Assembly: GCA_964493885.1 (NCBI GenBank)
Contig: CAZBPV010000003.1
Coordinates: forward strand, 7,831 to 71,830
Direction: 5' to 3'
Length of the DNA: 64,000 nt
DNA from: Candidatus Woesearchaeota archaeon
Lineage (GTDB): Archaea > Nanobdellota > Nanobdellia > Pacearchaeales > GW2011-AR1
The translations under genes and the position numbers were made by a program. The notes beneath the pieces were generated by a model, which was not told the origin of the DNA, did no database searches, and worked only from the letters and a program-made list of their open reading frames with translations. This document shows positions 704 to 19,595 of this stretch, piece by piece; the first letter of the stretch is position 1; each line of letters starts with the position of its first letter.

Positions 704-704
704 A

Positions 705-1701: not shown

Positions 1702-1817
1702 AAGAATGAATAGAAAATTACATTTAATTATTTTGAGGTTAGAATAATCCTAAAACAAAATCAAGTAATTCTTTTAAAATTGAATAGTATGCCATATTAA
1801 GAAATAAAGATTAAAAT

Positions 1818-3482: not shown

Positions 3483-3586
3483 TTCAGAGTTACTATGGTT
3501 TATAAACTTTTCTGTATTATAAAATATAACTAATTTTTGGTGGTTTCAAAAGATTTATATAGAAAAAAGGATATGTTTTATTATCG

Positions 3587-3979
3587 GTGGAAAAGATGTT
3601 AAAATCACATGAAAATTCTGTTGGTGCATGGGCTTTTCTTATTGGAGTAATTCTTGCATTAGTAATAGGGCTTTTTACTACATTGCTTCCTATCCCAGCA
3701 CTGATTAAATATAGTGCATATATTTACGGGATTCTTGTTTTACTTGGAATAGTTGTTGGAATAATGATAGTAAGAGGAAAAGACTCTCAAACAGTTCTTA
3801 TTGCTGGATTAATAATAGTGATTGTTAGTCAATTTGGAAAACAAAGTGTTAGTGGTTCACTAATTGGAATTGGATTAGATGATATGGTTAGTTCAATATT
3901 TACATCATTGCTAGCCTTATTTGTTCCAGCAACAATAATAATAGCACTAAAAACAGTATTTTCAATTGCTAAGGTTTGA
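3587..3979 (+). CDS. Hypothetical membrane protein (4 TM)
   Basis: 130 aa, hydrophobic throughout, no recognised motif. Confidence 0.5.
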   Translation: MEKMLKSHENSVGAWAFLIGVILALVIGLFTTLLPIPALIKYSAYIYGILVLLGIVVGIMIVRGKDSQTVLIAGLIIVIVSQFGKQSVSGSLIGIGLDDMVSSIFTSLLALFVPATIIIALKTVFSIAKV

Positions 3980-4170
3980 ATCTAATTTATCTATATTAAT
4001 AATAGATGGGTCATCCATATCTAATCTAAGCTAAAACTTATCAGTTTTGCAATAGTTTATCTATATTAATTACACTGCTATCCATATCTAATCTAAGCTA
4101 AAACTTATTAGTTTTGCAATAGTTTATCTATATTAATTACACTGCTATCCATATCTAATCTAGGGCAGGC
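3980..4170. repeat. Tandem direct repeat, about 67-bp unit x about 2.7 copies
   Basis: The unit tatccatatctaatctaagctaaaacttatcagttttgcaatagtttatctatattaattacactgc occurs at 4011-4078 and 4079-4145 (1-2 mismatches). There is a partial copy at 4146-4170 and a fragment at 3980-4010. Confidence 0.9.
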
Positions 4171-4719
4171 TGTATTCACCCAAGAACTTAAGCCAAAATT
4201 CTCAAATTCTTGCCTATTTATATTATTAGATAAGAAAAGATAGGATTTCTTATTGCATTTTTTAGCAAACTCAAGAGCTGTTTTTATTTTATTCTGCCCA
4301 GACTTTGTTGATATAATTATTCCTATTTTATTAGAATTAAGAAATTTTAAATAAGCAGCTTTTTGTTTTTTTTCTATAATTTCTACATCAGTCTTTGATA
4401 TTTTATCTAGACTATCTCTATTTAATATAAACACAGGTAATTTTGTTTTATATGCTAAGGAAATTGCATGAAATTTTCCTGAACCAACCAAAAGTATTGC
4501 ATTTGCATTTTCAGGAATATTTGGATTAGAACAGCCTAAAACCTGGATAAACTTAACTATATTGTGTGATTTAAGAATAGTTTTAATTTCTTCTGCTATT
4601 TTCTTAAATTGTATAGAGTAAGCAATAATTAAATTCTTAGGGAGCTGTTTAGATAACTCAAGTATCTTTGATTTATTTACTTTTAAATTAGATTTTGCTT
4701 CAATGTATAGTGTTTTCAT
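4108..4719 (-). CDS. Diphthamide synthase Dph2-family-like protein (short, possibly truncated)
   Basis: 203 aa with VGSGKFH and WVNTACPRL motifs reminiscent of PF01866. The last 17 codons and the stop lie inside the tandem repeat. Confidence 0.45.
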   Translation of the reverse strand: MKTLYIEAKSNLKVNKSKILELSKQLPKNLIIAYSIQFKKIAEEIKTILKSHNIVKFIQVLGCSNPNIPENANAILLVGSGKFHAISLAYKTKLPVFILNRDSLDKISKTDVEIIEKKQKAAYLKFLNSNKIGIIISTKSGQNKIKTALEFAKKCNKKSYLFLSNNINRQEFENFGLSSWVNTACPRLDMDSSVINIDKLLQN

Positions 4720-4740
4720 AGAAATAATCTAAAATAGTCC

Positions 4741-5136
4741 TTAATAAAACTTGTCTTCAAATTCTTTTTTTGGCTGTTCTGTTGCAACATGCTTTTCAAT
4801 CTTAGCAAAAGAAGGGGTAATAATAACAATATTCTCGTGTCCTGCAATATTTCCTTCAAGAGCATCAACAGTCTTTTTTATTTTAGAAATTGCTCTTTTG
4901 AGTTCAATAGGATCTTTTTGTTTTAAAATCCTAAAGTCAACTATTGCAATAGTATAACCTTCTCTTAAAGAATTAAGAATATTATTAACATCATCGTATT
5001 GTTTAAGAACAAAAACCTTAACAAGAACCTTATTTTCTTTTGCTTCTTTTTCTAAATCAATCTCCAAGTAATCCTCTCCAACAGGCTCACTTTTGAATGT
5101 GTTTGAAAATGCCTCTCTTATCCTTTTAAAAACCAT
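4741..5136 (-). CDS. sepF: Archaeal SepF-like cell-division protein (DUF552)
   Basis: 131 aa with an N-terminal amphipathic segment and a C-terminal SepF-like core (VLVKVFVLKQYDD...YTIAIVDFR). FtsZ is encoded in the same window. Confidence 0.65.
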   Translation of the reverse strand: MVFKRIREAFSNTFKSEPVGEDYLEIDLEKEAKENKVLVKVFVLKQYDDVNNILNSLREGYTIAIVDFRILKQKDPIELKRAISKIKKTVDALEGNIAGHENIVIITPSFAKIEKHVATEQPKKEFEDKFY

Positions 5137-5200
5137 AGTTAATTCAAATGTGAGAGATTTATAAAGATTTCGTAACTTTTTTGTATATTTAGAAGTAAGA

Positions 5201-5524
5201 TTATTTTTTCTCTTGCAACTTAACTATTTGTTCCTGTATCTCTTCTATTTTCTTTGCAAAAGAAGATTCTTGCTTTTCAATAGTCTTTATTCTCATTTCA
5301 AGAATTTTTTTCTTATTCTCTAACTCTTCTTTTACCTTAGATTTTTTTGTTTTAATCATTAATTGCCCGATAATCTTAAACACCTCTTCTCCTGCATTAT
5401 TAATTTCATTTAAAGCTGAGTCAGTCTCAGAAAGTTCTAATTGAAATGCTTGCTTTTGAAAAATAAGATTTTGGATATTTTGCTCCAAAAATTGCAATTC
5501 CTGGATTTTAGCATTAGATTCCAT
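5201..5524 (-). CDS. pfdB: Prefoldin beta subunit
   Basis: 107 aa coiled-coil - beta-hairpin - coiled-coil, in the conserved L37Ae-RpoP-PfdB arrangement. Confidence 0.8.
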   Translation of the reverse strand: MESNAKIQELQFLEQNIQNLIFQKQAFQLELSETDSALNEINNAGEEVFKIIGQLMIKTKKSKVKEELENKKKILEMRIKTIEKQESSFAKKIEEIQEQIVKLQEKK

Positions 5525-5661
5525 TATTCGGCTTTTATTTTTTTTACCTTATTTCTCGGCTTATAAAAGATTTTGCTTCCACAATACGGGCAAACAAATC
5601 TCTTATCAAGGTTAGTGCTTACTATCTTCTTTTCACACTTAAAACATTTGTATGATGGCAT
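5524..5661 (-). CDS. rpoP: DNA-directed RNA polymerase subunit P (Rpo12)
   Basis: Hand-found 45-aa ORF MPSYKCFKCEKKIVSTNLDKRFVCPYCGSKIFYKPRNKVKKIKAE (CxxC...CxxC zinc ribbon). Its TAATG stop/start overlaps pfdB. Not in the ORF track because it is under 60 aa. Confidence 0.7.
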   Translation of the reverse strand: MPSYKCFKCEKKIVSTNLDKRFVCPYCGSKIFYKPRNKVKKIKAE

Positions 5662-5666
5662 TTTAT

Positions 5667-5885
5667 TTATTCTCCTAGATAATAAACATCTGATGCAAAT
5701 TTTTTATTGCATCTGGTACATTTCCAGATTCCTTTTGAAAGTCTTTTAGCAGTTCTTTTGCAAAAAGGGCAGGATTGCTTTTTTCTTTGTTTTATTTCTA
5801 CTTGAACGAGTTTTGCTTTTACTGTTTTTCCGTATCTTGCTCCAAATCTTCCAGAAGATTTTACTTTTTTTGTTTTTGTTGTCAT
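5667..5885 (-). CDS. rpl37ae: Ribosomal protein L37Ae (eL43)
   Basis: GRFGARYGKTVK...CPFC...CTRC matches L37Ae. Confidence 0.9.
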   Translation of the reverse strand: MTTKTKKVKSSGRFGARYGKTVKAKLVQVEIKQRKKQSCPFCKRTAKRLSKGIWKCTRCNKKFASDVYYLGE

Positions 5886-5895
5886 GTTATTAAAA

Positions 5896-5968
5896 TGGGG
5901 CTGCCCGGATTTGAACCGGGGTCGTCAGGTCCCAAACCTGAAAGGCTACCAGGCTACCCCACAGCCCC
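5896..5968 (-). tRNA. tRNA-Pro (anticodon UGG)
   Basis: GC-rich 73-nt cloverleaf on the minus strand: acceptor GGGGCUG/CAGCCCC, anticodon loop UU-UGG-GA, T-loop GGTTCAAATCC, discriminator A, no encoded CCA. Confidence 0.85.
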
Positions 5969-6003
5969 CTAACGAAAAGATTAGCTTTAAAGAATTTATA
6001 AAA

Positions 6004-6711
6004 CTATTTCTTTTGTTCTGGTTTTTTTGATTCTGGCGAGGGTTTAGCAGCAGATGGGACAGGTGTTTCTCCAGGTTTGGCTTCTGCTCCTGGAGCAGCG
6101 GGAGCTGCAGCAGCAGCTTCAGCTGCAGCAGCAGCTGCAGCAGCTTGTTCCTGTTGCATTACCTTTTGCTGGCTAGATTGTAATTCTGCGAAGAATGCGT
6201 CAAGCATTTGTCTTTTTTCTGGAGGAGTTGTTATTGATTCTTCTTTAATTTCTTTATTATATTTACCTTCATCAATTTCCTGCCCAATTTCCTTAGGAGA
6301 TTTGTTTTCTATAATTATTCCTAAACTTGTACAGGTTCCGACTACAGACTTAACAGCAGCCTTTAAATCCCTTGCAAGCAAATTTGACATTTTTGTTTTA
6401 GCTATAGAAATTATTTGCTCAATAGAAGCATTTCCAATACATACTTTTTTTTGTGCTCCAGACCCTTTTTCAAGTTTTAGTTCTTTTTTTAATAATTCTG
6501 ATACTGGAGGTGAAAAAACTTTTACTTCAAATTGTTTTGTTCCAACATCAACATCTAATTCTACTGGAACTTTTAATCCCTTGAAATCTTTAGTAGCATC
6601 ATTAACTTTAGATATAACTTGCCCTATATTTATTCCAGCTGGCCCAAGCTTTTGACTAAGTGCAGGACCTGGCTGCATTGCTCCACCTTCAACTAAAAGT
6701 TTAATCTGCAT
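6004..6711 (-). CDS. rpl11: Ribosomal protein L11 (uL11) with about 70-aa Ala/Pro/Lys-rich C-terminal extension
   Basis: The N-terminal two-thirds match uL11 (PGPALSQKLGPAGINIGQVISKVN). The C-terminal tail QQEQAAAAAAAAEAAAAAPAAPGAEAKPGETPVPSAAKPSPESKKPEQKK is encoded by a locally GC-rich tract. Confidence 0.9.
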   Translation of the reverse strand: MQIKLLVEGGAMQPGPALSQKLGPAGINIGQVISKVNDATKDFKGLKVPVELDVDVGTKQFEVKVFSPPVSELLKKELKLEKGSGAQKKVCIGNASIEQIISIAKTKMSNLLARDLKAAVKSVVGTCTSLGIIIENKSPKEIGQEIDEGKYNKEIKEESITTPPEKRQMLDAFFAELQSSQQKVMQQEQAAAAAAAAEAAAAAPAAPGAEAKPGETPVPSAAKPSPESKKPEQKK

Positions 6712-7159
6712 TTTCTTCTCCTTCTTCTCTTCGGATTACTTTAACATTATCAATTTTTACTGTAACTGGCAATGGTACAACAGCACCAAGCAAGCTAACT
6801 ACTACTTCTTCTTTTTGTTTGTCTATTCTTAAAACTTTTGCTTTTTCTCCTTTAAGAGTAGAACCAATCATTTCAATAATATCTCCTTCTTGGATTGTAA
6901 TTGTGCTTGCTGATGGCTCAATCATCCCTTTAATCTCTTCGTAGGAGATAGTTTTGCCTATAATCCCTTTTATATATGGAAGATTAAAAACTGCTTCTTC
7001 AGCTGAATCTCTATCTTCTGCCTCTAGAATAATATACCCTCTAAGCCCGTGAGGATGTGAAACAGAATAAACATTAAGATTTTTCTTTTCAGATTTTTCA
7101 GCAATCATATCTATGGCTCTTTCTTCTTTATTTGTTGTGACTTTAATAATAAAAATCAT
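6701..7159 (-). CDS. spt5: Transcription elongation factor Spt5 (NusG homolog)
   Basis: NGN domain (MIFIIKVTTNKEERAIDMI) plus KOW (GDIIEMIGSTLKGEKAKV), with 11-nt overlap with rpl11. The track ORF begins 23 codons earlier (7228); Met24 matches the archaeal Spt5 N-terminus. Confidence 0.85.
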   Translation of the reverse strand: MIFIIKVTTNKEERAIDMIAEKSEKKNLNVYSVSHPHGLRGYIILEAEDRDSAEEAVFNLPYIKGIIGKTISYEEIKGMIEPSASTITIQEGDIIEMIGSTLKGEKAKVLRIDKQKEEVVVSLLGAVVPLPVTVKIDNVKVIRREEGEENAD

Positions 7160-7256
7160 TTTTTGTTTTCCTTTTGCTCTAGCCAAAAATATTTTTTGGC
7201 TTGCTTTGCTCCAGCTAAGATATAACATCTTAGAAAGATATATTTAGTTAAATATT

Positions 7257-8615
7257 TGGGTTTATAAGGATTTCGGAAAAAGAGAGTGTTAGATATTAGG
7301 GAGTTATCATCGTTTTCTCCTCTCCTGTTAAGTTGCGGGAGTTTTTTAGTTTTATTGAATTTAATAGCATAGTCTCCCACTTGTTACCTTGAACTCCAAT
7401 ACCACATTTATCTGCGGGTGTTAATCCTTGTCTTGAGTTTTTTCTCACGAAATTATGGAATACCTTAAAGCCATCTTGATAAGTCTGAACTTCTTTTACT
7501 CCTCTCCTTATCTTATGAAATTCTTTTTGTTGTGTGTGATGACTCTCTATTGCGTTATTATTCACTTCTTTTCTATGTCCTTTAATTGATGTAAATTTAA
7601 CCTTTCTCTCATTACCCCAATTTCTAAATGTCTTTCTGCAACCATCTTCATAACCTTTGTAGCCATCTACGATTATCTGAAATGGAATTTTTCCATTCTG
7701 CTTTAATGCCTCTGTAAAAACGTGCTGTGCATCTTTACTTTTTCTACTTCTGCCTGAACATTCAGAGGCAAGAAGAAATTTACTTTTGTTATCCATAACA
7801 TTCCAGACATAATCAAATTCAGTATTCGGATTTTTCTTGTCTTTTCCTCTCTTTGTTAAAATTAAAGTTTCGTCTGCGTTCCAAACTCCTTTAATTTTTG
7901 GTTGGATTGTTTCGCTGTATTTTTCCATTACTTCTGAAAATCTTAAAACCCATTCTCTTATAGTTACGTGAGAAATATTTAAGTTGTAAAATTGCTGGAA
8001 TTGGTGGCTTATATCTCTATAAGATAGCCCTCTATAATAACAATCCATAGCCAAACAGATAAGTTTAGCGTTTCCTTTAAGGTATTTGATTGGCTCTAAA
8101 ACAAATCTTTTATGACAATCCTTACATTCATACCTTTGTTTATCTCCTATTTGAGTTTTCCTTATTCCACTTTTTACTAAGTTTTCAGAATTACAAAAAG
8201 GGCATAACTCTTTTTGTGGCTTATCTACAATTAATTCTATTTCTTTTCTTATTGGGCTTTCTTCTACTTCATAAGCATTTTTCAGCTTTTCAAATAAGAT
8301 TATAGCTTTAATGTGTTTGCAGTATAAACCTTGTCCTTTACATCTTAATTCAAAATCCTTACAATTACAGGAATAACTATCAAAATGAGTAACTTGATAT
8401 TTCTTACTACTATCAAATTGAGATGGAACTAAATAAGTATTTTCGTCTAAACATTCAGGGTTTCCTATTTGTAAAATAGCTTTTGCTCTTTCTTCTCTGT
8501 TGTCTGCGAATTGTTTAATGTCGTTTGTTGTTTCCATTTTATATTAGTTAATACCTAATTATATTAAGGAATAGCTAATATATAAACCTTTCGGTTTTAA
8601 GGGAAAGGGTTTATA
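7257..8615 (-). mobile_element. IS6-family insertion sequence (boundaries approximate)
   Basis: Contains the IS26-like transposase below. Short GGTTTATA repeats lie near both ends (7259 and 8578/8607, one inverted); exact IRs and target-site duplication are unresolved. Confidence 0.5.
7296..8537 (-). CDS. IS6-family DDE transposase with N-terminal SWIM zinc finger and CxxC zinc ribbon
   Basis: The C-terminal 240 aa align motif-by-motif with IS26 Tnp (SYRD..HVTIREWVLRFSEVMEK, WNADET, IIVDGYKGY, NNAIESHH). The N-terminus has CNCKDF...CKH (SWIM) and CPFC...CKDC. Confidence 0.85.
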   Translation of the reverse strand: METTNDIKQFADNREERAKAILQIGNPECLDENTYLVPSQFDSSKKYQVTHFDSYSCNCKDFELRCKGQGLYCKHIKAIILFEKLKNAYEVEESPIRKEIELIVDKPQKELCPFCNSENLVKSGIRKTQIGDKQRYECKDCHKRFVLEPIKYLKGNAKLICLAMDCYYRGLSYRDISHQFQQFYNLNISHVTIREWVLRFSEVMEKYSETIQPKIKGVWNADETLILTKRGKDKKNPNTEFDYVWNVMDNKSKFLLASECSGRSRKSKDAQHVFTEALKQNGKIPFQIIVDGYKGYEDGCRKTFRNWGNERKVKFTSIKGHRKEVNNNAIESHHTQQKEFHKIRRGVKEVQTYQDGFKVFHNFVRKNSRQGLTPADKCGIGVQGNKWETMLLNSIKLKNSRNLTGEEKTMITP

Positions 8616-8656
8616 TAGCATTTTTACTCCTTAAATAAGGTATATTTGGGGTAAAT

Positions 8657-8878
8657 ATGGGGCATAAGCAAGAAGAGAATAAAACACAGAAAAACGCTCA
8701 AGAGAAGAAAAGTGTGAACATCAGCGTAACATTTGATAAATCTATCTGGGAGATTATAAGCAGTTCACAGGAGTTAGGCGAGAGTGATTCTGGAAAAGTC
8801 AATCATATCTGTGTTTCTTGGCTAAGCGAACACGGAATTTTATCAGGAATTATTAAAAAGAGGTTAAATATAAGATGA
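8657..8878 (+). CDS. Small ribbon-helix-helix (CopG-like) DNA-binding protein, putative
   Basis: 73 aa with a beta-strand VNISVTFDKS followed by two helices. It is a cargo gene next to the IS, and its stop overlaps the next ORF start (ATGA). Confidence 0.4.
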   Translation: MGHKQEENKTQKNAQEKKSVNISVTFDKSIWEIISSSQELGESDSGKVNHICVSWLSEHGILSGIIKKRLNIR

Positions 8879-9087
8879 CTTTTCAACAAGGGCTACAATT
8901 AGCCATAGAAATATTTGAAAATAAAATTATAAATCTTGAAAATGATTATAAACAAAAGCATATAGAAGATTTTGATAGGCAAAAAATGAATAAACATATT
9001 AATAAGAAATTAAAAAAAGAGATTAATGGGCTAATTTTTCTTAATTTAGCGTATCCTGTAAAAATTCTAAAAAACCGAAAGATTTAA
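8875..9087 (+). CDS. Hypothetical small protein (coupled to the RHH gene)
   Basis: 70 aa, Lys-rich, no motif. Translationally coupled to the upstream RHH ORF. Confidence 0.35.
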   Translation: MTFQQGLQLAIEIFENKIINLENDYKQKHIEDFDRQKMNKHINKKLKKEINGLIFLNLAYPVKILKNRKI

Positions 9088-9112
9088 ATAACCTGATTAG
9101 CTATAGACTAAT

Positions 9113-9379
9113 ATGGTTAGTCCAATTCCAAAATGGGTGTGGAAGCGTTATGCTAAACTTTGGCAGAAATTTGCTGATAAACCTTTTACATTTGAACAAG
9201 CGAAAAAAGAATTAAAGTTTTTAGACAGAAATGTAATCAGCGTTATGTTTAATGAATTAAAAACTGCTGGATGGATTAAAGTAGGTTTAAATGAAAAAGA
9301 CAGCAGATTCAGAGTATATAACTTAATAAATCCCGAACAAATAGTGGAGAGCGTAGAAAATGATATTAAGAAGCATTAA
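9113..9379 (+). CDS. Winged-helix DNA-binding protein, putative regulator
   Basis: 88 aa with a helix-turn-helix-wing pattern (ISVMFNELKTAGWIKVG...RFRVYNL). Confidence 0.45.
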   Translation: MVSPIPKWVWKRYAKLWQKFADKPFTFEQAKKELKFLDRNVISVMFNELKTAGWIKVGLNEKDSRFRVYNLINPEQIVESVENDIKKH

Positions 9380-9746
9380 AGTAGAACATAAGGATGAAAA
9401 AACAGGTTTAGTCTCAAAAAGAATTATAACCTCTGAATGGGAAACTCATAATCATAAAATAGCAGTAAATAATTCTTTATTCTCCTGCGAACAAAAGAGA
9501 ATAGATAATAAAAAACAAATTTTAAATGCCCCTTTTCAAATACATCATATTTTCTTTAATAAAAAAAGAAATATTTGGAATTTTGATAAAATGGCGGAAA
9601 GCAAAGCTCACGCCTCAAGATTAGGAAGATTCTATTTGCCTTTTCAACAGAGAAACGCAAAACAATGGGAAGGTTTAGCTTTTCAAGAAGCAGAGGCAGA
9701 TTTTCAAGAGTTAGTAACAAAAGGTTTCCTTATTCTATCCCATTAG
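9360..9746 (+). CDS. Hypothetical protein (island cargo)
   Basis: 128 aa, no motif. It overlaps the next ORF by 82 nt in another frame. Confidence 0.35.
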   Translation: MILRSIKVEHKDEKTGLVSKRIITSEWETHNHKIAVNNSLFSCEQKRIDNKKQILNAPFQIHHIFFNKKRNIWNFDKMAESKAHASRLGRFYLPFQQRNAKQWEGLAFQEAEADFQELVTKGFLILSH

Positions 9747-10465
9747 ACGCCTCTTTAGAAGAATGGAAAAAGAGGAGAGTTGATGCACTATCCTTACTTA
9801 ATCAAAACCAAAGTTTAGTGGCTATATTCTGTTCAAGACATCAAATAGATTTATTTGAGGAAATTTTTAATTATGAATTTGAAAATTCAAAGTTGATAGG
9901 AGTGCAGTGTTATGGATTAAATGACGCTAATACCTTGCTTAATTTAATGAGAATAAAATCAAGAAATATGATGTTGCAGACAGGAGATATATCTCCTTTA
10001 CTTGTTGGATTAAATTACGAGAAAGTTCAAAGAAAGTTAGCTTTTGTGTCTGGTAGTTTTGCTTATTCTTGTTTTGGATTTGATATTTTATCTTGTAGAC
10101 AACTTTGTATGGAAAATATGCCTGCGGATGCAATAAGAAAGATGTTAAGCAGAAAAATAGAGGAAATTTTGAGATATGATAAAACTCTGGGTGGTTTTAA
10201 TCAGTCAGCAGAACAGGAGTTTTGGGATGGAGTTAATTTAACAAGGGCATTTTTGGAAAGGGTTAGTGTAACAGAGGGCTTAAATCAATATCAAGCTATA
10301 CAATGGGCAAATCATAGAGAACAACAAAAAGATTTAGACATCTTAAATGATTATATTTTAGAAACAGCTTACAAAGAAGATGCTCTTTTGAATTATATTG
10401 AAACTGAAAAAGAAAAGTGGGCAGTTTATTGGAAAACTAAAATGATTAAGTACACTAAGTCTTAA
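9665..10465 (+). CDS. Hypothetical protein (island cargo), possibly the frameshifted continuation of the upstream ORF
   Basis: 266 aa. Its frame is open from 9590, so a -1 shift anywhere in 9590-9746 would fuse it with the 128-aa ORF. Confidence 0.35.
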   Translation: MGRFSFSRSRGRFSRVSNKRFPYSIPLDASLEEWKKRRVDALSLLNQNQSLVAIFCSRHQIDLFEEIFNYEFENSKLIGVQCYGLNDANTLLNLMRIKSRNMMLQTGDISPLLVGLNYEKVQRKLAFVSGSFAYSCFGFDILSCRQLCMENMPADAIRKMLSRKIEEILRYDKTLGGFNQSAEQEFWDGVNLTRAFLERVSVTEGLNQYQAIQWANHREQQKDLDILNDYILETAYKEDALLNYIETEKEKWAVYWKTKMIKYTKS

Positions 10466-10729
10466 ATAATCCCTACTAATACATTACTGGCTACAAAAAC
10501 CTACTTCTATTGTTAATGTAATAATACTCTCGAGCTTTTCAATCTTGTAATTTACTATTTAAAACGTGTAGCCCCTAATTATTTTTAGAGTTTTATTAAC
10601 ATCTCATTTACCAAAATTTAATTTTATCGAAGAGAAAATTACTAACTATCCTCTTAACATAATCTAAAAGTAGGTAATTTCAATTAGAGGGGAAGTATTA
10701 TGGTTTGATGTAATTAAGCCAACCATAAA

Positions 10730-13408
10730 TTAATATTTTTCTATAATATCTTGCTCTGTTTTTGTTATTCCATATAGACTATATATTTCTTCATTAATTT
10801 CATAATCTACATTCTTAATCTGTTGTTCTGAATTTTCTTTGCATAGTTTCATCATTCTTTCTACTAACTCTTTTATTTTATTTGCCTGTTTTTGTTCTGG
10901 GATTTTGACAGGCAGTAATTTTAAGTAAGGAATATCAAATCTGATATACCCCCCTGCCATATGCGTTGTTTCAAACTTCATCTTATAATAATAATTAATC
11001 AGTTTAGAGTTAATAATCGCTAACAACACTTCAAATAAACCTTCATCTTTGGGGATTAGAATAGATGATTTTCCAATATAATAACCCTCATCGTCAATAG
11101 TCGCCTGAACGCCCTTGGTTACCCTCGCTATAACAATTTTTCTTTTTTTGAATAGCTCTTTTAATTTATCAGAATATATTTTATTCTCAATATATTCCTT
11201 TTTCCAATCTATGCTATATCTTTTTATATCCCTTGTCTGAATCATAGGAGAGTATTTTTTGTCGTTTTGCTTATCTTCTCCTTTGTGCGTGGCAAAACCA
11301 GTAATAGACGAACCCCATACAAAAGTTTCCTGATAATCTTTTAGTTTTTCACACCCCTCTAATTTAGAAATAATCTCTTTATTTTCTGAAGTAGAACTTA
11401 TCATAAAATTTAATTTATTATCTTGTCTAAATTCTTCCTGTTCAATCTCATTCAGTTTTAAATTAGGAACTATATCTTTTTCATCTTCAATAATCGCCAC
11501 ACCTAATTTATTATTTTTGATTAGCCCTTTTTTGAATATAGTTATAACTGGATATGTAGAAGCGTCTTTGAAAATTCTTAAATGAGAAACATCAACTATT
11601 TTCTTTAATGAAGTTTCTTTTAACATTAACTCTCTCAAAGCAAAAGCATTTTCAGTTGATAAGTAAGTGTTAGGATTAATAAATCCAAACATCCCGCCCT
11701 CTTTTAACAATCTTATAGACTTCTCAATAAACAACTGAAATAAATTGTATTTTACAACCTTGCCATTAACATTTGAAGATTCATAATTTTTATTAAAATA
11801 TTCTGTGCCTTTTATGTTAGAATAATCTACATATGGCGGATTTCCGATAACAATATCAAAACCACCTTCCTTTATTGAGGGAAATTGAGCGTTCCAATTA
11901 AATGCCTTTTCATAATTAGAATCAGAAATTAAGCTATTCCCATTTTTGATATTATCTTTCATAGTAGGCAAAACTCTTTTTCTTGTTTCTCTTGTTTCTT
12001 CTTCTAAAATCTTTAATAATAAATTAAGCTGTGCAAGTTCCACAGCTTTCTCATCTAAATCTACTCCATAAATACAATTTGTTAGAATAGTTGCTTTTTG
12101 ACTTATATTTAATCTCTCGTTATATGAATTAAAACTATTCCACTTCTTTGATTTTTCGCCTTTATTTAATTTTTCTTCTATAACATTACATAATTCTTGA
12201 AATGCCCTAATCAAGAAAGAGCCAGAGCCACAGGCACAATCTAAAACTTTTACCTCTAAAATCTCATCTATTGATTTATTCTTAACATACTCTCCGAGAG
12301 TATTTTTTACTATATAATCCACAATATAAGAAGGGGTATAGTAAATTCCCATACTTTTTCTTTTTCCACTTAACAAATCTAACTTAACTCGCTTTTCTGT
12401 TCCTCTTAAAACCACTCCTAAATACTGCTCATAAATACTGCCTAATAAGTCAATAGGAATCTCATCAAACATATATCTCTCTTGATGTTCTTGCGTTCCA
12501 TAATATAATCCTTTTATAACTTTAATGATATTTTTATCATCAAAAAATCCTTCTTTTTCTAACAACCCATCAAAAAAGAGTTTAGAGTTATACTCCTTAT
12601 CAAATATTCTAAATTGAATTTTTAATAATGCCCAAAGAGTTTTATCAGTTCTGCCTTGCTGAACATCATCTATCTTTTTTAGTAAAAAGTCTTTTTCTTC
12701 TAATCCTCTATCTTCAACAGAACGCATAAAAATTAATCTATCAATTAGAATCTGAACAATCTCATCAATTTGAGAATCAGTTAAATAAGTTCTTTTATCC
12801 TTTAAGTCCTTTGAAAGCCACTCTCTATACTGAAGTAAATCGGTTAATATTGCTTCATCAATCGGTTTAATTAACTTCTTGTCTACATTTTTAAGAAGTT
12901 TATCAATTTCATCTTTTTCAAAACTCTCTCTTGATAATAACCATAGTCTATCAAACTGCTCAATAAAATTCTCACAATCTATCCAGAAATAACCCTTATC
13001 ATCTTTCAATAAGTTTTTATCTATATTCTTGATATTAGATAATGCGTGATAAACTCTTATTTGTTTAAAATTAGTTAATACAGAAAACTTTATGTTTTTA
13101 TGGTGTGCATAAGAAACAGCCTGTCTTCCTTCTTTTTCTTCAAGTTTAATATCTGTTGCTTTTGCTTCTATCACTAACTTTTGCTGGTTTCCAATCCTTA
13201 ATATATAATCTGCTCTTCCTTTCAATACCCTTTCTTCTTTATTAATATCTTCTAATTCCCAACCCAACGCCTTTAGTAATGGCTCAATAAATCTAAATTT
13301 TATTTGTTCTTCTTTCATTCCATCAAGTTCACTTTTAGGAATAGCTAAGAATTTATTTACTATCTTTCCTACCTCTTGTTTTGCTGTTTCCTTATCCATA
13401 GAAATCAC
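10730..13408 (-). CDS. Type IIG (MmeI-like) single-chain restriction-modification enzyme: PD-(D/E)XK nuclease + gamma-class N6-adenine methyltransferase + TRD
   Basis: The N-terminus has D67...E81-A-K83 (GRADYILRIGNQQKLVIEAKA), compared with MmeI D70/E80/K82. MTase motif I is VLDCACGSGSFL and motif IV is GNPPYV; a C-terminal TRD-like region follows. Confidence 0.85.
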   Translation of the reverse strand: MISMDKETAKQEVGKIVNKFLAIPKSELDGMKEEQIKFRFIEPLLKALGWELEDINKEERVLKGRADYILRIGNQQKLVIEAKATDIKLEEKEGRQAVSYAHHKNIKFSVLTNFKQIRVYHALSNIKNIDKNLLKDDKGYFWIDCENFIEQFDRLWLLSRESFEKDEIDKLLKNVDKKLIKPIDEAILTDLLQYREWLSKDLKDKRTYLTDSQIDEIVQILIDRLIFMRSVEDRGLEEKDFLLKKIDDVQQGRTDKTLWALLKIQFRIFDKEYNSKLFFDGLLEKEGFFDDKNIIKVIKGLYYGTQEHQERYMFDEIPIDLLGSIYEQYLGVVLRGTEKRVKLDLLSGKRKSMGIYYTPSYIVDYIVKNTLGEYVKNKSIDEILEVKVLDCACGSGSFLIRAFQELCNVIEEKLNKGEKSKKWNSFNSYNERLNISQKATILTNCIYGVDLDEKAVELAQLNLLLKILEEETRETRKRVLPTMKDNIKNGNSLISDSNYEKAFNWNAQFPSIKEGGFDIVIGNPPYVDYSNIKGTEYFNKNYESSNVNGKVVKYNLFQLFIEKSIRLLKEGGMFGFINPNTYLSTENAFALRELMLKETSLKKIVDVSHLRIFKDASTYPVITIFKKGLIKNNKLGVAIIEDEKDIVPNLKLNEIEQEEFRQDNKLNFMISSTSENKEIISKLEGCEKLKDYQETFVWGSSITGFATHKGEDKQNDKKYSPMIQTRDIKRYSIDWKKEYIENKIYSDKLKELFKKRKIVIARVTKGVQATIDDEGYYIGKSSILIPKDEGLFEVLLAIINSKLINYYYKMKFETTHMAGGYIRFDIPYLKLLPVKIPEQKQANKIKELVERMMKLCKENSEQQIKNVDYEINEEIYSLYGITKTEQDIIEKY

Positions 13409-13450
13409 AAGAAATACTTATTTTTAAAACCTATCAAAATCACTCTATTA

Positions 13451-13500
13451 ACTCCCGACACTTAACACCCTTACTCATCTCCCGAAGACTTAACACACCC
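13451..13500. repeat. Two tandem copies of the CCCG-N3/4-CTTAACAC motif
   Basis: ctCCCGacaCTTAACACcc (13452-13470) and tctCCCGaagaCTTAACACaccc (13478-13500). An inverted copy is at 7324-7341 and a further copy at 21369-21387. Confidence 0.6.
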
Positions 13501-13515
13501 TCGGAAAAAAACTTA
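13500..13515 (-). terminator. Putative oligo-T terminator after secE
   Basis: A T7 run on the minus strand (A7 at 13505-13511 on plus) lies about 46 nt after the secE stop, next to the GC-rich motif. Confidence 0.25.
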
Positions 13516-13556
13516 TAGTGAAAAATCTTGATTTTTGCTCTATAAACTTTTCACTG

Positions 13557-13682
13557 TTATCTTACAATATATTTCATCACTGCAGAAATTGCAAAACCAA
13601 TAATTCCTAAGAGGATTATTCCAACTCCAGCTATTTTTGCAGTCTGAAGTAATTCTTTTTTAGAGGGTTTTCTTAATGCCAT
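13557..13682 (-). CDS. secE: Preprotein translocase subunit SecE (Sec61 gamma)
   Basis: Hand-found 41-aa ORF MALRKPSKKELLQTAKIAGVGIILLGIIGFAISAVMKYIVR (single TM). It sits immediately downstream of ftsZ, the conserved archaeal position. Confidence 0.7.
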   Translation of the reverse strand: MALRKPSKKELLQTAKIAGVGIILLGIIGFAISAVMKYIVR

Positions 13683-13754
13683 CCAGACTCTTTTACATTT
13701 CAATAAAAAAGATGATAATATCATAGTCTAATTATATTTGTAGGGTTTTTAAAA

Positions 13755-14858
13755 TTATTCAAAGAAATCTATCCCAAGTTCTTCTTCTATTTCTTTATGC
13801 CTCATAACTTCTATAGGATCTCCCTGTCCTAAAATCTGAGAACTTTTGACTCCAGTAACAATTAGTAATACTCTAATAGATTTGTCCATGTCTGGAGCAA
13901 TTTGAGCCCCCCAAATCATCTTTGCATCTGGGCTTAATTTTTCTCCTATATGTTCAATTATTTCCTTGCATTCATCAAGGCTCATATTATTTCCTCCGAC
14001 AATATTTATCAAAGCTCCTGTTGCATTGGATATGTCTACATCTAACAAAGGATTATGCATGGCTTTTGTAACTGCATCAATTGCTCTCTGTTCTGTATCT
14101 GACTCTCCCATACCTATCAAGGAAACCCCTCCATTAACCATTACAGCTTTAATATCTGCAAAATCAAGATTAACTAAGCCAGAGGTTGTTACAAGCTCTG
14201 TAACTCCTTTTACAGCATTTGTAAGAATTTCATCAGAAATTTTAAATGCAGTGTGCAATGGGAGTTCTGGAGCAAGTTCTAAAAGCTTATCATTAGGTAT
14301 TACTATAAGAGTGTCAACATTTGCTTCTAATTTTTCTAATCCTTCCATAGCGTTTTCAATTCTCTTCCTTCCTTCTATAGTAAAAGGGAGAGTAACAACT
14401 CCTATAGTCAAAGAACCTTGTTTTTTTGAAATTCTTGCTATTTCAGGGGCAGCTCCTGTACCAGTCCCTCCTCCTAAACCGCAAGTAATAAAGACCATAT
14501 CTGCTCCAGAGATTTTCTTTTTTATCTCAGATTCTGATTCTTTTGCAGCTTCTTCACCAATTTTAGGGTTGCTGCCTGCACCTAATCCCTGAGTTAGTTC
14601 TTTTCCAATCAGTATTTTTTGGTCAGCATTAGCATATAACAAATCCTGAGCATCAGTATTAATTGCTATAAGCTCTCCTCCTTTTATTCCAATCTCCTTC
14701 ATTCTGCTTAAAGAGTTATTTCCTCCTCCTCCAACCCCAACTACTTTAATTTTTGCAGATTGTTTTTTTAATAACTCTTCAAGTTCTCTATCTATTTCTC
14801 TTACTTCTTCAGAAATGTTGTATGAAACATCCGCGCTTTGACTATAAGTTATACTCAT
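13755..14858 (-). CDS. ftsZ: Cell division GTPase FtsZ
   Basis: GGGTGTG tubulin signature (GLGGGTGTGAAP) and NTD/T7 loop, 367 aa. Confidence 0.95.
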   Translation of the reverse strand: MSITYSQSADVSYNISEEVREIDRELEELLKKQSAKIKVVGVGGGGNNSLSRMKEIGIKGGELIAINTDAQDLLYANADQKILIGKELTQGLGAGSNPKIGEEAAKESESEIKKKISGADMVFITCGLGGGTGTGAAPEIARISKKQGSLTIGVVTLPFTIEGRKRIENAMEGLEKLEANVDTLIVIPNDKLLELAPELPLHTAFKISDEILTNAVKGVTELVTTSGLVNLDFADIKAVMVNGGVSLIGMGESDTEQRAIDAVTKAMHNPLLDVDISNATGALINIVGGNNMSLDECKEIIEHIGEKLSPDAKMIWGAQIAPDMDKSIRVLLIVTGVKSSQILGQGDPIEVMRHKEIEEELGIDFFE

Positions 14859-14884
14859 GAAAAATTGAGGTTTGAGTTGTTTAT

Positions 14885-15023
14885 AAGAATTGTTGTGCTT
14901 TTATCTATAACATTCATAGATACAAATCCACGCAGTGATTTGCATAAAGAATTGTTGTGCTTTTATCTATAACATTCATAGATACAAATCCACGCAGTGA
15001 TTTGCATAAAGAATTGTTGTAGT
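14885..15023. repeat. Tandem direct repeat, 63-bp unit x 2.2, in the ftsZ upstream region
   Basis: The unit aagaattgttgtgcttttatctataacattcatagatacaaatccacgcagtgatttgcata occurs at 14885-14947 and 14948-15010, with a partial copy to 15023. Its core acaaatccacgcagtgatttgca recurs in the repeat at 24699-24812, and the 13-mer aagaattgttgtg also occurs at 19414. Confidence 0.9.
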
Positions 15024-15689
15024 TTATTCTTTATTTTCTTTTGATTTATTTTTATCTGTTTCTTTTTCTTCAATTACATTTAAATTTAAATTAAATAAAT
15101 CTTTGAACTTATCCTTAAATAAGGTAACCAGATTAATTAATTGTTTTTCAACAAAAATTGATAATTCCTTGTCTTTTATCTCAAATCTAAAATTTTTTCT
15201 AAATAAGAAATCAATAAAGGATTTTATCTTTTCGTTAATATCCTCAAGTTTTCTATTAATCTTAAGATCATATTCCAGATCTTTTCCTGCAAGAGGATTA
15301 TTAAAATCTACTCTGACTCTTCCTCCTGAAACAGAAAGTACTTTTGCTATTCTCCCATCAAAATTAAACATTGCTCCTGGAAAAGGATTTAATTTATGCT
15401 GCCTAAAAACAGAGGGGGGAACAATTTGCACTAATTTAGGGTCCCTATTTCCAAAAGCTTTTTCTGCATTTAGTTCTAAATGATATTGCTTTCCTATTTC
15501 TTTTCCAATAAGAAAATCATCAATTCCCCTTAAGAACATGCCTTGTCCTAAAGAAAAGATAAAAGGCTTTGCAGTTGTTTTGAGATTTGCCTTTTCAATA
15601 TCAGATTTGATATTTGAATCAAATATATCTCCATTTTTTATTTTTCCAGTAAATTCAATTTCAATAAAATCTTTTTCTTTTAATACCAT
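15024..15689 (-). CDS. FKBP-type peptidyl-prolyl cis-trans isomerase (long archaeal type with IF insert)
   Basis: FKBP fold motifs (GQGMFLRGIDDFLIGKEIGKQYHLELNAEKAFGNRDPKLVQIVP); the C-terminal tail is Lys/Glu-rich. Confidence 0.8.
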   Translation of the reverse strand: MVLKEKDFIEIEFTGKIKNGDIFDSNIKSDIEKANLKTTAKPFIFSLGQGMFLRGIDDFLIGKEIGKQYHLELNAEKAFGNRDPKLVQIVPPSVFRQHKLNPFPGAMFNFDGRIAKVLSVSGGRVRVDFNNPLAGKDLEYDLKINRKLEDINEKIKSFIDFLFRKNFRFEIKDKELSIFVEKQLINLVTLFKDKFKDLFNLNLNVIEEKETDKNKSKENKE

Positions 15690-15739
15690 GATATTTGTTT
15701 AGTAAAAACGTTTATAAATCTATTTTTTTTGGATTAGAT

Positions 15740-16132
15740 ATGGTTGCAAGGATAATTGATGCTACAGATGCTAAGGTTGGAACAAATATAATTGTTGATG
15801 GAAAGCCTTGTACTGTAAAAAAAATTGACATAAGTAAGACTGGGAAACATGGACATGCAAAAGCTAGAATTGAGGCTGTTGGGATGATTGATGGCAATAA
15901 AAAAGTTTTTGTTGTTCCAGGACACGAGAGGCTAGAAGTTCCAATGGTAGATAAAAGAAAAGGGCAAGTCTTAAGCAAAGGAGAAAATAGTGTAAGTATT
16001 ATGGACTTGGATACCTTTGAAACACTAGAAGTAGAATGCCCAGAAGAAGATGTAAAATCTCAATTAGTCGAGGGGGAAAATGCAGAGTACTGGGATATTG
16101 AAGGAAGAAAGATAGTAAAGAGGAAACTTTAA
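15740..16132 (+). CDS. eif5a: Translation initiation factor 5A (aIF5A)
   Basis: Hypusine loop STSKTGKHGHAK. Start chosen at the Met matching the aIF5A N-terminus; the track ORF starts at 15695. Confidence 0.9.
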   Translation: MVARIIDATDAKVGTNIIVDGKPCTVKKIDISKTGKHGHAKARIEAVGMIDGNKKVFVVPGHERLEVPMVDKRKGQVLSKGENSVSIMDLDTFETLEVECPEEDVKSQLVEGENAEYWDIEGRKIVKRKL

Positions 16133-16144
16133 GGATAAACTAAA

Positions 16145-16306
16145 ATGGCTAAAATACCTGAAGCACAAAATAGACTTTTCAGAAATGTTTTCATTTGTAA
16201 AAGATGTAACAGCAAGATTAGGAGTGACCCCTTGAAAATACTTTTGGGGAAGGTTAAATGCAGAAAATGCGGTTACAAAGCATTCAGGCCAATAAAGAAA
16301 AAATAA
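16145..16306 (+). CDS. rpl40e: Ribosomal protein L40e
   Basis: Hand-found 53-aa ORF MAKIPEAQNRLFRNVFICKRCNSKIRSDPLKILLGKVKCRKCGYKAFRPIKKK (C4 zinc ribbon, L40e pattern). Confidence 0.75.
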   Translation: MAKIPEAQNRLFRNVFICKRCNSKIRSDPLKILLGKVKCRKCGYKAFRPIKKK

Positions 16307-16322
16307 GAGTTAATTAATAAAG

Positions 16323-17762
16323 ATGAATTTTGTAATATATGACCTAACACTTTTAGTTGTATTTGCTATTGCTATCTCAATTTTTCTATACTCAAGAAGA
16401 AATAATCTAAAAAAGGAAGGATTACTACTCCTCTATAAATCTGATTGGGGTATAAAACTTATTGAGAGAATAGGGAAAAAATACCCAAGAACAATAAAGA
16501 TATTAAGTTATTTATCAATAATTTTAGGCTATTTACTGATGATAACAATGGTTTACTTATTTGTAAAAATTGTTATGGTTTATGTATTTAATCCAGAAAT
16601 TGTGAGGGCAATAAAAATTCCTCCTATAATGCCATTGATACCTTATCTCCCTTCGATATTCAAACTTAATTTTTTGCCTCCTTTTTATTTTATTTATTGG
16701 GTAATAATCATTGCAATAATTGCAATCCCTCATGAATTAGCTCACGGAATTTGTGCAGCATATAATAAAATAAAGATAAAAAATACTGGTTTTGGATTTT
16801 TTCCATTTTTTCTTCCAGTATTTCTAGCAGCATTTGTAGAACCAGATGAAAAAGGAATGAATAAAAAGGATAAATTCAGCCAAATGGCAATTTTATCGTC
16901 TGGGACATTCGCAAATGTTGTTACAGCAGTGTTTTTTTTATTTATCTTATGGGCATTTTTCTCCTTGTTTTTTTCTCCAATAGGAGTGGTATTTGATACT
17001 TATTCCTATTCTATAATAAATATATCAGACATTTCAAAAATAAATAATTTAAGTGTGATTAATAGCAGTTATGATGGAGTGCTTGATTTAATGGACAATA
17101 CTAATATTAATATTATCGAAGCTAATAATATTAAATATATAGGGATTAAAACAATTCTAGAGGAATCAGCAAACAAAGAGTTATTTAAAAAACAGGGGAA
17201 AATGGTTTTATATGACTATTCTCCTGCAATAAAAAACGGAATTATCGGCGCTATTACTAAAATAAATAATGTGAAGATAGATAGCAAAGAAAAATTAGCT
17301 AAAGAATTATCCTTTAAAAAACCTGGTGAAGAAATAGAAATTCAAACCTTTGATGGAGAAACTTATAATTCTCAAAAGATAATACTTGAAGAAAATCCTG
17401 AAAAAGAAGGTATGGCTTGGCTTGGAATTGGATTTATAGAGCAGGAACGTCAAGGGATTATGGGAAATATTATGAATGCTATGTCTAGGTTTAAAGAACC
17501 AAATGTCTATTATCAAGGAAAATTTGCATTTAGTGATTTTATTTACAATCTTTTATGGTGGATTATTCTTGTTTCAATAAGTGTTGCATTAATTAATATG
17601 CTCCCTATTGGAATATTTGATGGGGGGAGATTCTTTTTCCTAACTATGACAGCAGTAACTGGAAGTGAGAAAATAGCTAAAAAAACTTTCTCTACCTTGA
17701 CACTTATTTTCTTATTGCTTTTAGTATTAATGATGTTTTTCTGGGCTTTTAGCTTTTGGTAA
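16323..17762 (+). CDS. Site-2 protease family (M50) intramembrane zinc metalloprotease with PDZ-like region
   Basis: HELAHG (HExxH) in a TM helix, the downstream NMLPIGIFDGG (LDG) motif, and multiple TMs. Confidence 0.8.
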   Translation: MNFVIYDLTLLVVFAIAISIFLYSRRNNLKKEGLLLLYKSDWGIKLIERIGKKYPRTIKILSYLSIILGYLLMITMVYLFVKIVMVYVFNPEIVRAIKIPPIMPLIPYLPSIFKLNFLPPFYFIYWVIIIAIIAIPHELAHGICAAYNKIKIKNTGFGFFPFFLPVFLAAFVEPDEKGMNKKDKFSQMAILSSGTFANVVTAVFFLFILWAFFSLFFSPIGVVFDTYSYSIINISDISKINNLSVINSSYDGVLDLMDNTNINIIEANNIKYIGIKTILEESANKELFKKQGKMVLYDYSPAIKNGIIGAITKINNVKIDSKEKLAKELSFKKPGEEIEIQTFDGETYNSQKIILEENPEKEGMAWLGIGFIEQERQGIMGNIMNAMSRFKEPNVYYQGKFAFSDFIYNLLWWIILVSISVALINMLPIGIFDGGRFFFLTMTAVTGSEKIAKKTFSTLTLIFLLLLVLMMFFWAFSFW

Positions 17763-17783
17763 AATGATTAGGGAATTGAAAAG

Positions 17784-18776: not shown

Positions 18777-19047
18777 TTAAAATTGACTCTGCAAAGAATA
18801 TCATCAAAATACCGAAGATAAGAAGAATCAATCCACTTACTAAGAAAATAATAAATTTAGTTATTTCTAATGAAAGAGTATATGCAACAATCGATGAGGC
18901 AATTATTGCAATTCCAAGTCCAGAATTAATTTCTCCGCATAATCTCGCCCATAGATAACTTCTTGTTAAAATGCTTACTAACATTGCAATCAGAATTACG
19001 AGCAATAGAAGATTAATTAAAATAAAATAAATCATTTTACAAGTCAA
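18757..19047 (-). CDS. Hypothetical small membrane protein (3 TM)
   Basis: 96 aa, hydrophobic, no motif. Overlaps the taw1 3' end by 20 nt. Confidence 0.35.
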   Translation of the reverse strand: MTCKMIYFILINLLLLVILIAMLVSILTRSYLWARLCGEINSGLGIAIIASSIVAYTLSLEITKFIIFLVSGLILLIFGILMIFFAESILIKSQSY

Positions 19048-19387: not shown

Positions 19388-19595
19388 ACCTTGAAACAGA
19401 AATTTCTATATTTAAGAATTGTTGTGTTATATTTAATACAATTCTGTGTTCAAATTAACACAGTCATTTGACAAAGGAGTATTATTTTATAAGATAAAGT
19501 TTAAATAGTGATATTCTGTTGAAACTTTAACCGATTGAACCATATCGCTGAAGTTCATTTTCTGAACACAAGCGCATGATATGGGAGGTACTTAC

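Follow-up and report, generated by a model that had tools for sequence, protein, structure and literature searches.

What separates secE from spt5 in this genome? The order FKBP-ftsZ-secE-spt5-L11-L37ae is common to the loci of related archaea, and in the DNA analysed here the minus strand reads FKBP, ftsZ, secE, about 6.3 kb of other genes, spt5, rpl11, tRNA-Pro and L37ae. This DNA, called the window below, is the whole 64,000-nt stretch taken from contig CAZBPV010000003.1 of a Candidatus Woesearchaeota archaeon (assembly GCA_964493885.1, positions 7,831 to 71,830), and comes from an archaeon of low GC content (~30%). A first-pass annotation made from the letters alone had placed secE and spt5 about 6.3 kb apart on one strand, and the Pfam SecE and NGN profiles and the coordinates agree with it. 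We consider it probable (roughly 0.85) that window 7282-13500 represents a single, intact copy of a DDE transposon that carries cargo and inserted next to a promoter. The features that define the insertion are as follows.

6701-7159, minus strand: spt5, NGN domain (8.3e-16), protein start MIFIIKV
7261-7268, minus strand: TATA box of spt5-rpl11, CTTATAAA, then CCC; it aligns with relatives and lies at offset 13 from the element end
7273-7281, no strand: left copy of the target-site duplication, TCGGAAAAA, an exact 9-mer abutting the terminus
7282-7343, minus strand: transposase-proximal (P) end with two repeat copies, overlapping the C-terminus of the transposase
7282-7305: terminal copy of the P end, reverse complement AACTCCCTAATATCTAACACTCTC, a degenerate fourth copy of the motif
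7324-7343: inner copy of the P end, reverse complement AACTCCCGCAACTTAACAGG
13450-13500, plus strand: distal (D) end with two repeat copies
13450-13469, plus strand: inner copy of the D end, AACTCCCGACACTTAACACC
13477-13500, plus strand: terminal copy of the D end, ATCTCCCGAAGACTTAACACACCC
13501-13509, no strand: right copy of the target-site duplication, TCGGAAAAA, an exact 9-mer abutting the terminus
13557-13724, minus strand: secE, found by hand in the first pass and matched by Pfam SecE (8.5e-7); neighbour upstream of the insertion site

Ends of the element and the empty site

The element is 6,219 bp long and ends in imperfect terminal inverted repeats, GAGAGTGTTAG... and GGGTGTGTTAAG...; the two repeat copies are spaced by 38 nt at the P end and by 27 nt at the D end. 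In the 64 kb, exactly three copies of the motif CTCCCG-N2-3-ACTTAACA were found, at 7341-7326 on the minus strand and at 13452-13467 and 13479-13495 on the plus strand, while shuffled sequences are expected to contain it 0.00 times. The GC-rich motif that had been seen to bracket the island was recovered at these three places, and it is the terminal and subterminal repeat, present twice per end. The 9-mer TCGGAAAAA abuts both termini and is the sole direct repeat of at least 9 nt between the two flanks; termini and duplication were first spotted by eye and then by script. Toward secE, 47 nt of native spacer (13510-13556) are kept between the stop codon and the duplication. The GC content of the island (0.27–0.33) is that of its surroundings, without anomaly of composition, and the rest of the window contains no second copy of island genes or island DNA.

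To place the insertion among its relatives, we used 80 loci from metagenome-assembled genomes (MAGs) of Pacearchaeota/Woesearchaeota (GTDB Nanoarchaeota), whose Spt5 is 71–92% identical. In the four closest (L006, L007, L009 and L013; Spt5 88–92%) the secE-spt5 junction is uninterrupted and measures 64–126 nt. When the window flanks are joined with a single 9-mer, the resulting spacer aligns with those of these four, the TATA box and the leader hairpin included, and the window TATA box falls on TTTATAAACC.

The element contains no integrase, replication gene or att site, its ORFs (open reading frames) gave no recombinase, replication or virion domain with the Pfam, NCBIfam and PADLOC profiles, and tRNA-Pro lies 1.3 kb away, not at the island boundary. 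An integrase-type island, a provirus or an integrated plasmid does not fit the inverted-repeat ends, the 9-bp duplication and the missing recombinase, replication and virion domains, and the earlier description of the island as plasmid-like gives way to that of a unit transposon. The other part of that description, a mobile insertion carrying defence genes, is borne out by the duplication, the terminal inverted repeats, the empty sites in relatives and more than 30 sister elements.

A family of cargo-carrying elements

The transposase of the element has 391 database homologues, the best 120 of which are about 410 aa (amino acid residues) long and 70–95% identical, and 136 further clusters were obtained at 50% clustering with E <= 1e-30. 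In 80 metagenome loci the last ~75 nt at the 3' end of the transposase gene are conserved to ...AACAC[TA]C[TC]C, where similarity stops (in about 60 loci the conserved stretch ends precisely at ...AACACTC[TC]C), and in sister elements an inverted terminus with a tandem pair of repeats stands 2.8–7.4 kb upstream of the transposase. The two-copy D end and its terminus are common to 12 aligned sister elements, and the termini of the family read G[AG]G[AT]GTGTTAAG ... CTTAACAC[AT]C[CT]C. In total, 31 complete elements of 2.8–7.4 kb were delimited, 25 of them between direct repeats of unrelated sequence; the duplication is exactly 9 bp in 22 and 8, 10 or 11 bp in three more. Furthermore, the variants of the repeat (CTCCCG, AGCCAC or GTCCCT; TTAACA, GCGACA or TTGACA) co-vary within an element, as would be expected of binding sites cognate to each transposase.

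Several loci bear on mobility. L087 and L089, from two related metagenomes, share one element (7678-11204 in both; 99.5% identity over 3,528 nt) with unrelated flanking DNA, and homology sets in exactly at the terminus, which indicates a recent transposition. The whole contig of L103 (4,934 nt) is exactly one element, and in L161 (4362/4397; with L162) a tandem pair of elements is separated by 34 nt; both cases are suggestive of multi-copy behaviour. A search of 2.9 million contigs of a viral collection gave one match (IMGVR_UViG_3300023257_000175, corresponding to L166 / L114), an 18.5-kb contig which is also among the metagenome loci, and the plasmid matches of the transposase were distant Clostridial IS6 elements. 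A virus or plasmid origin was rejected on this single IMG/VR match and on plasmid matches confined to such distant relatives.

The cargo of the family was determined by clustering of the ORFs of 30 non-redundant complete elements together with Pfam annotation. All 30 carry cargo, mostly restriction-modification (RM) genes of Types II, IIG and III, and no transposase-only copy was found among the complete sister elements. A Type IIG RM enzyme is the commonest cargo (11/30), followed by GmrSD/HNH with an M.EcoRI-like methylase (5/30); the others include Type III mod and res, a C5-methylase with an unknown partner, Fic, RelA/SpoT, an AAA ATPase, and a SAM-methyltransferase with DUF488. A module of proteins of 57–73, 70, 88 and ~370 aa recurs beside the transposase. 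The family is well defined and apparently undescribed in archaea: no prior description of transposons of Pacearchaeota or DPANN was found in the literature searched, which covers not all journals.

Fixed distance between the element end and TATA boxes

For the analysis of the targets, 94 non-redundant outward flanks were aligned at the element end, and a TATA box was scored as at least 7/8 matches to TTTWWAWA. Such a box starts at offset 13 in 50 of the 94 flanks, compared with a mean of 2.2% at unrelated offsets (p = 8e-57), and at offsets 12 and 14 in 19 and 12 flanks, compared with about 2. Offset 13 equals the 9-bp duplication plus a spacer of 4 nt. The flank consensus, N6-[C/A]-[G/A]-A-A-A-N-N-TTTATAAA-C, reads as an archaeal transcription factor B recognition element (BRE) followed by a TATA box, both pointing away from the element. 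Facing the P end in the window is TTTTTCCGA-AATC-CTTATAAACCC, which is the spt5 promoter common to the relatives. The first-pass annotation had spoken of an insertion into a housekeeping operon; the operon is not broken, and the element stands 13 nt upstream of the TATA box of a conserved, independent spt5-rpl11 promoter, which stays whole thanks to the duplication.

The orientation of the element is free, as a TATA flank is present in 27 of 30 insertions with two flanks, at the P end only in 10, at the D end only in 12 and at both ends in 5. An outward ORF comes after 25 of 36 TATA flanks, mostly with its start 42–58 nt from the element end, which is the spacing expected of archaeal genes with short leaders; no tRNA genes were found downstream of the TATA flanks without an ORF.

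A distantly related element occupies the same secE-spt5 gap in L061 (JBEKXS010000001.1, Pacearchaeota SPRUCE_657; 6690-9960). Its transposase is of IS240 type, has 303 aa without SWIM and is 29% identical to that of the window, and its cargo consists of an N6/N4 methylase-Mrr fusion, a zinc-ribbon mini-protein and a MazE/AbrB-like protein. The geometry is that of the window, with a 9-bp duplication CAGTTAACC, then AAAC, then the spt5 TATA box TTTTATAAACCC, and L061 is an independent arrival at the same spt5 promoter.

Could selection have produced this pattern from random insertions, of which only those lying between a stop codon and the following BRE/TATA are retained? The genomes are compact with short intergenic spacers, insertions that wreck genes or BRE/TATA would be lost, and the flanks without a TATA box also often adjoin genes. 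However, the offset is fixed to within 1 nt, whereas selection would allow any position upstream of the BRE, and therefore it does not come from selection alone; in the window, moreover, 47 nt of free spacer toward secE were left unused, and the distant element of L061 reached the same offset at the same promoter on its own. We regard this explanation as unlikely, and the insertion of these elements appears to be targeted and not random.

Cargo of the window element and support from other assemblies

The window element comprises the transposase and six further ORFs, which represent five genes, one of them split by a frameshift.

7296-8537, minus strand: DDE transposase, 413 aa; Pfam PF13610 (DDE_Tnp_IS240) 38.3 bits, SWIM 20.8 bits
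8538-8656, no strand: divergent intergenic region between the transposase and the cargo operon, with TATA-like boxes ATATATAAACC and GGGTTTATATAGC read from the sequence, which may act as promoters
8657-8878, plus strand: ORF of 73 aa
8875-9087, plus strand: ORF of 70 aa
9113-9379, plus strand: ORF of 88 aa
9360-10465, plus strand: TGT-like gene (tRNA-guanine transglycosylase fold), ~370 aa, split into ORFs of 128 and 266 aa
10730-13408, minus strand: Type IIG RM enzyme, 892 aa, likely start ATG 13399

The RM enzyme had been called MmeI-like Type IIG, and both profile collections support this. Pfam gave Eco57I (9.6e-41), N6_Mtase, TaqI_C, MmeI_Mtase and HSDR_N, and PADLOC gave REase_MTase_IIG (2.4e-116, residues 8–685). 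HSDR_N/PDDEXK covers residues 32–123, Eco57I/N6_Mtase/MmeI_Mtase 347–662 and TaqI_C 721–834, which is the Type IIG layout of an N-terminal PD-(D/E)XK nuclease, a gamma-class N6-adenine methyltransferase and a C-terminal specificity domain in one polypeptide.

The 70-aa and 88-aa proteins recur beside the transposase in nine further loci of the family according to tblastn and clustering (among them L088, L116, L138, L141, L153, L156, L157 and L163), and the 88-aa protein also in a tenth, L152. None of the 73-, 70- and 88-aa ORFs has a credible match in Pfam, NCBIfam or PADLOC, the only match at all being a weak one of the 88-aa ORF to PADLOC Cas8b (4.4e-4), and the earlier ribbon-helix-helix (RHH) and winged-helix labels found no support from profile HMMs. 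The next two ORFs, described earlier as unknown and with overlapping frames, together form one gene of roughly 370 aa that carries a 1-nt deletion near 9726-9728 (GGTTTCC; alternative reading GGTTTTCC), since sister elements and about 40 database homologues have it as one uninterrupted ORF. A TGT-type TIM-barrel fold was found for this gene; Pfam, NCBIfam and PADLOC gave no notable match to it (no Pfam TGT profile), and the zinc-site CxCxxC is not among the residues invariant in 42 homologues. The frameshift falls exactly where NCBI contig DATEYC010000189.1 ends, and may reflect a true pseudogene, or else a polymorphism or an artefact of joining.

The public MAG GCA_035256385.1 is not identical to the window, from which it differs by one single-nucleotide polymorphism and a 62-nt tandem-copy difference upstream of ftsZ (window ~14947-14958 against DATEYC010000161.1). 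NCBI contig DATEYC010000189.1 corresponds to window 1-9726 and DATEYC010000161.1 to window 12842-22237, the latter ending inside the RM gene, and an ENA contig and a Logan contig correspond to 6465-7657 and 6525-7561. The left junction is present in DATEYC010000189.1 and in the ENA and Logan contigs, and the right junction in DATEYC010000161.1. The interior 9727-12841 was seen in the window's own assembly only; exact-protein look-ups gave no match for the RM enzyme (with two candidate start codons), the 266-aa ORF or P0121, and hence the interior is unconfirmed by a second assembly.

These breaks bear on the possibility that the window joins different copies or strains, in which case the distance between secE and spt5 would be unreal or the cargo chimeric. 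The NCBI assembly breaks at 9726, where the frameshift lies, and at 12842, which suggests that strains are heterogeneous or that related elements coexist in the community, and elements in many copies, as the contig of L103 illustrates by being exactly one of them, cause such breaks. Nevertheless, both outer junctions are reproduced in independent assemblies; both flanks share the 9-mer and together rebuild the secE-spt5 spacer of the relatives, and the gene order of the window (RM, TGT-like module, transposase) matches that of L116 and L153. An artefact is improbable.

The transposase and its relation to IS6

The transposase contains a SWIM zinc finger (residues ~55–81), a zinc ribbon with four cysteines (112–147) and an IS6-like catalytic core (156–364). 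In the homologue alignment D222, D291 and E331 are invariant and K338 nearly so, the four cysteines of the zinc ribbon are invariant, and the SWIM residues CxC...CxH are nearly invariant. The Pfam PF13610 score of 38.3 bits is above the gathering cut-off of 27, whereas the NCBIfam IS6 model NF033587 (1.6e-27) covers model positions 7–201 of 202 with 96.5 bits against a cut-off of 125. The matches to IS1, IS66 and IS256 models are weak, the IS1/IS1595 zinc domain was also matched, and the best annotated tblastn matches are ISCpe7/IS6 transposases (~25% identity, residues 65–387); a sequence search of the PDB gave nothing. Judged by these profiles, the transposase appears only distantly IS6-like, with the likeness limited to the catalytic core. 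An IS6-family transposase with a SWIM finger had been proposed, and as far as the core and the SWIM domain go Pfam agrees, whereas the 9-bp duplication, the obligatory cargo and the single-copy architecture do not fit that family.

Members of the IS6 family make 8-bp duplications, are 0.7–0.9 kb long (up to ~1.7–1.8 kb) and have the transposase as their only gene, with one passenger-carrying member in ISfinder; their cargo moves in pseudo-compound transposons with two direct copies of the insertion sequence (IS), through replicative cointegrates (PMC7986276). The archaeal elements share with IS6 clade h, the long Clostridial ISCpe7-like members, a DDE triad with a following K and an N-terminal CxxC zinc domain (PMC7986276), and with IS6 in general the short, highly conserved terminal inverted repeats; their catalytic core matches the Pfam profile and falls short of the NCBIfam cut-off. 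Unlike IS6, they have a second, subterminal repeat copy at each end, a 9-bp duplication, an extra SWIM domain and a fixed distance to TATA boxes, and they are unit transposons of 2.8–7.4 kb with one transposase and always cargo. In the window there is one transposase gene without a second copy, and the inverted termini enclose the cargo, in contrast to an IS6 pseudo-compound transposon.

Considering that IS6 elements normally consist of the transposase only, the island might be thought a composite, in which a simple IS was joined by a separately gained RM cassette and small-gene module, while the motifs at 13452-13500 were left by a decayed copy; the breaks of the NCBI contigs inside the island would agree with it. 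However, no repeat copy is present beside the transposase start (8538-8656), the 9-bp duplication brackets the whole 6.2 kb, the termini of the 31 sister elements always enclose transposase and cargo and never the transposase alone (25 of them with duplications), and L116 and L153 have the RM gene, the TGT-like module and the transposase in the same order. A composite origin is very unlikely.

Gene order in the relatives

The synteny around secE is conserved in 70 relatives, but the adjacency of secE and spt5, which had been called universally conserved, is not universal in this lineage: more than 700 nt separate the two genes in 22 of the 70, mostly with host genes on the same strand that are unrelated to the island of the window. 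The secE-spt5 gap is filled in L024, L039, L047, L063-L065, L072, L075, L080 and L084, and the ftsZ-secE gap in L006, L023, L052 and L076; the genes there encode a PKD-domain protein of 600–766 aa and proteins of 200–270 and ~100 aa. The ftsZ-secE-spt5 string is often broken in the lineage without mobile elements. Despite these long gaps, the idea that the island is vertically inherited, lineage-specific content is hardly credible, because the gaps hold unrelated genes such as the PKD-domain protein, close homologues of the transposase, RM enzyme or module are absent from this site in all 80 relatives, the site is empty in the closest of them, and the duplication and inverted repeats are present.

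The separate operon of rpl1-rpl10-rpl12, which the first-pass annotation had attributed to the insertion, is also found on the opposite strand, several kb upstream of FKBP, in many relatives with an uninterrupted junction, so that this arrangement is ancestral.

Proposed mechanism of insertion

Taken as a promoter-adjacent transposon, the element may have moved as follows. The transposase most likely binds two repeat copies per end, and would pair the imperfect terminal inverted repeats and join them to target DNA with a 9-bp stagger, as the duplication suggests. Insertion would put the 9-bp duplication 4 nt upstream of the BRE/TATA and the element end 13 nt from the first TATA base, and either end of the element could face the promoter. 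Because the 13 native nucleotides ahead of the TATA box would be restored by the duplication, BRE and TATA would survive and the downstream gene would keep its promoter, which would make the space between a gene end and the next promoter a low-cost ‘safe harbour’. In the window, landing upstream of the conserved promoter of spt5-rpl11 would have parted secE from spt5. The Type IIG RM cargo would serve defence and probably also post-segregational stabilisation of the element; the remaining cargo is the four-gene module, whose largest gene is TGT-like and frameshifted here. As to how promoters are recognised, a direct read-out of BRE/TATA DNA and a capture of bent DNA bound by TATA-binding protein (TBP) and transcription factor B (TFB), in the manner of Ty3, are about equally likely.

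Several points weigh against the interpretation as an intact, promoter-targeting transposon. Transposition itself was never observed. The transposase stays under the NCBIfam IS6 cut-off, and its presumed chemistry is borrowed from distant relatives; likewise, the defence activity of the RM enzyme is predicted from its domains. Six of the 31 pairs of ends have no clean duplication. No empty-site allele, which would read ...GGATTTCGGAAAAA directly joined to AACTTATAGTG..., was found in the same species, and the insertion is present in all three contigs with identical Spt5. Purifying selection that removes insertions from genes or core promoters must add to the distribution of sites. Finally, the combination of cargo genes could be a mis-join of related elements, as the interior comes from one assembly and the frameshift sits at a contig end.

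Comparison with other mobile systems

The yeast long terminal repeat (LTR) retroelement Ty3 has its integrase directed by TFIIIB (TBP and Brf1) to the start sites of Pol III. The archaeal family is similar to it in its DDE-type integration at a nucleotide-precise distance from the promoter, upstream of genes which are spared, but Ty3 is a eukaryotic retroelement with Pol III targets, and the archaeal transposase may recognise BRE/TATA DNA directly. With Tn7-like elements the family shares the organisation as a unit transposon, the multiple end repeats, the mainly defence-related cargo and the harmless sites (PMC8649781). Tn7, in contrast, depends on a machinery of several proteins (TnsABC plus a target selector), duplicates 5 bp of its target and relies on a single att site or on guide RNAs, whereas the archaeal family has a single IS6-like transposase, 9-bp duplications and a promoter landmark that occurs hundreds of times per genome. 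It resembles Tn7-like elements and Ty3 functionally and is a member of neither. Mobile RM units, too, carry RM genes in small mobile units found between conserved genes (PMC2853133); those are heterogeneous and mostly inferred from single comparisons, while ends, duplication and target rule are defined here.

The island itself, a transposon with an RM gene, is an event of an ordinary kind. According to a survey of 2019, passenger-carrying DNA transposons had gone undetected in archaea (PMC6563490), and no TATA-directed integration in archaea was found in the literature searched, with the same limit on journals as above. That these elements are the first defined passenger-carrying DNA transposon family in DPANN archaea, with an IS6-like transposase guided by TBP/TFB on BRE/TATA, is a tentative proposal which we hold to be possible but rather doubtful as a whole.

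Host genes and other features around the island

14858-13755, minus strand: ftsZ
6711-6004, minus strand: rpl11

The start of spt5 is the ATG at 7159-7157 and not at 7228, according to the alignment with relatives. A stem-loop at 7215-7234 (minus strand) lies at the 5' end of the spt5-rpl11 leader, some 22 nt downstream from the TATA box of spt5. This hairpin is kept at the equivalent position in L006-L085, with GGAGC/GGAAC coming next, and its stems vary by lineage with apparent compensatory changes (TCTAAGAT..ATCTTAG; CTACTTCTTAG..TAAGAGGTAG; ATTCTTTAAT..ATTAAAGGAT). It may be an autoregulatory leader; the Rfam scan gave no family for it or for anything else in the island.

The C-terminal tail of L11 (~70 aa) is of low complexity and rich in Ala, Pro and Lys, and lifts the local GC to 0.42. 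Inside rpl11, the last 64 nt of the ENA contig (L002) differ from the window. A tandem duplication of ~113 nt, with copies 92% identical, lies at window ~3983-4162 (blastn of L001 against the window) and overlaps the 3' end of a diphthamide-synthesis-like gene. In L095, a sister element with C5-methylase cargo (848-4270) has inserted at the opposite edge of this conserved block, with the P end just past the 3' end of L37ae, near tRNA-Pro, L11, spt5, secE and ftsZ.

Significance for the archaeal hosts

The break in a highly conserved gene string is explained here by a precise, low-cost insertion and not by decay of an operon. The family is widespread and ferries RM and other defence or toxin genes among Pacearchaeota/Woesearchaeota, whose mobilome is almost unknown. 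The fixed distance of 13 nt to the TATA box offers a testable case of promoter-guided integration in archaea, which bears on transposases that read transcription complexes, and possible uses are a computational marker of true promoters in uncultured archaea and a one-protein tool for insertion upstream of archaeal promoters. If guidance by TBP/TFB proved true, the family would be a prokaryotic counterpart of Ty3-TFIIIB, inserting precisely and free of orientation 13 bp upstream of promoters, and promoters would serve as a platform for the dissemination of defence genes in reduced genomes.

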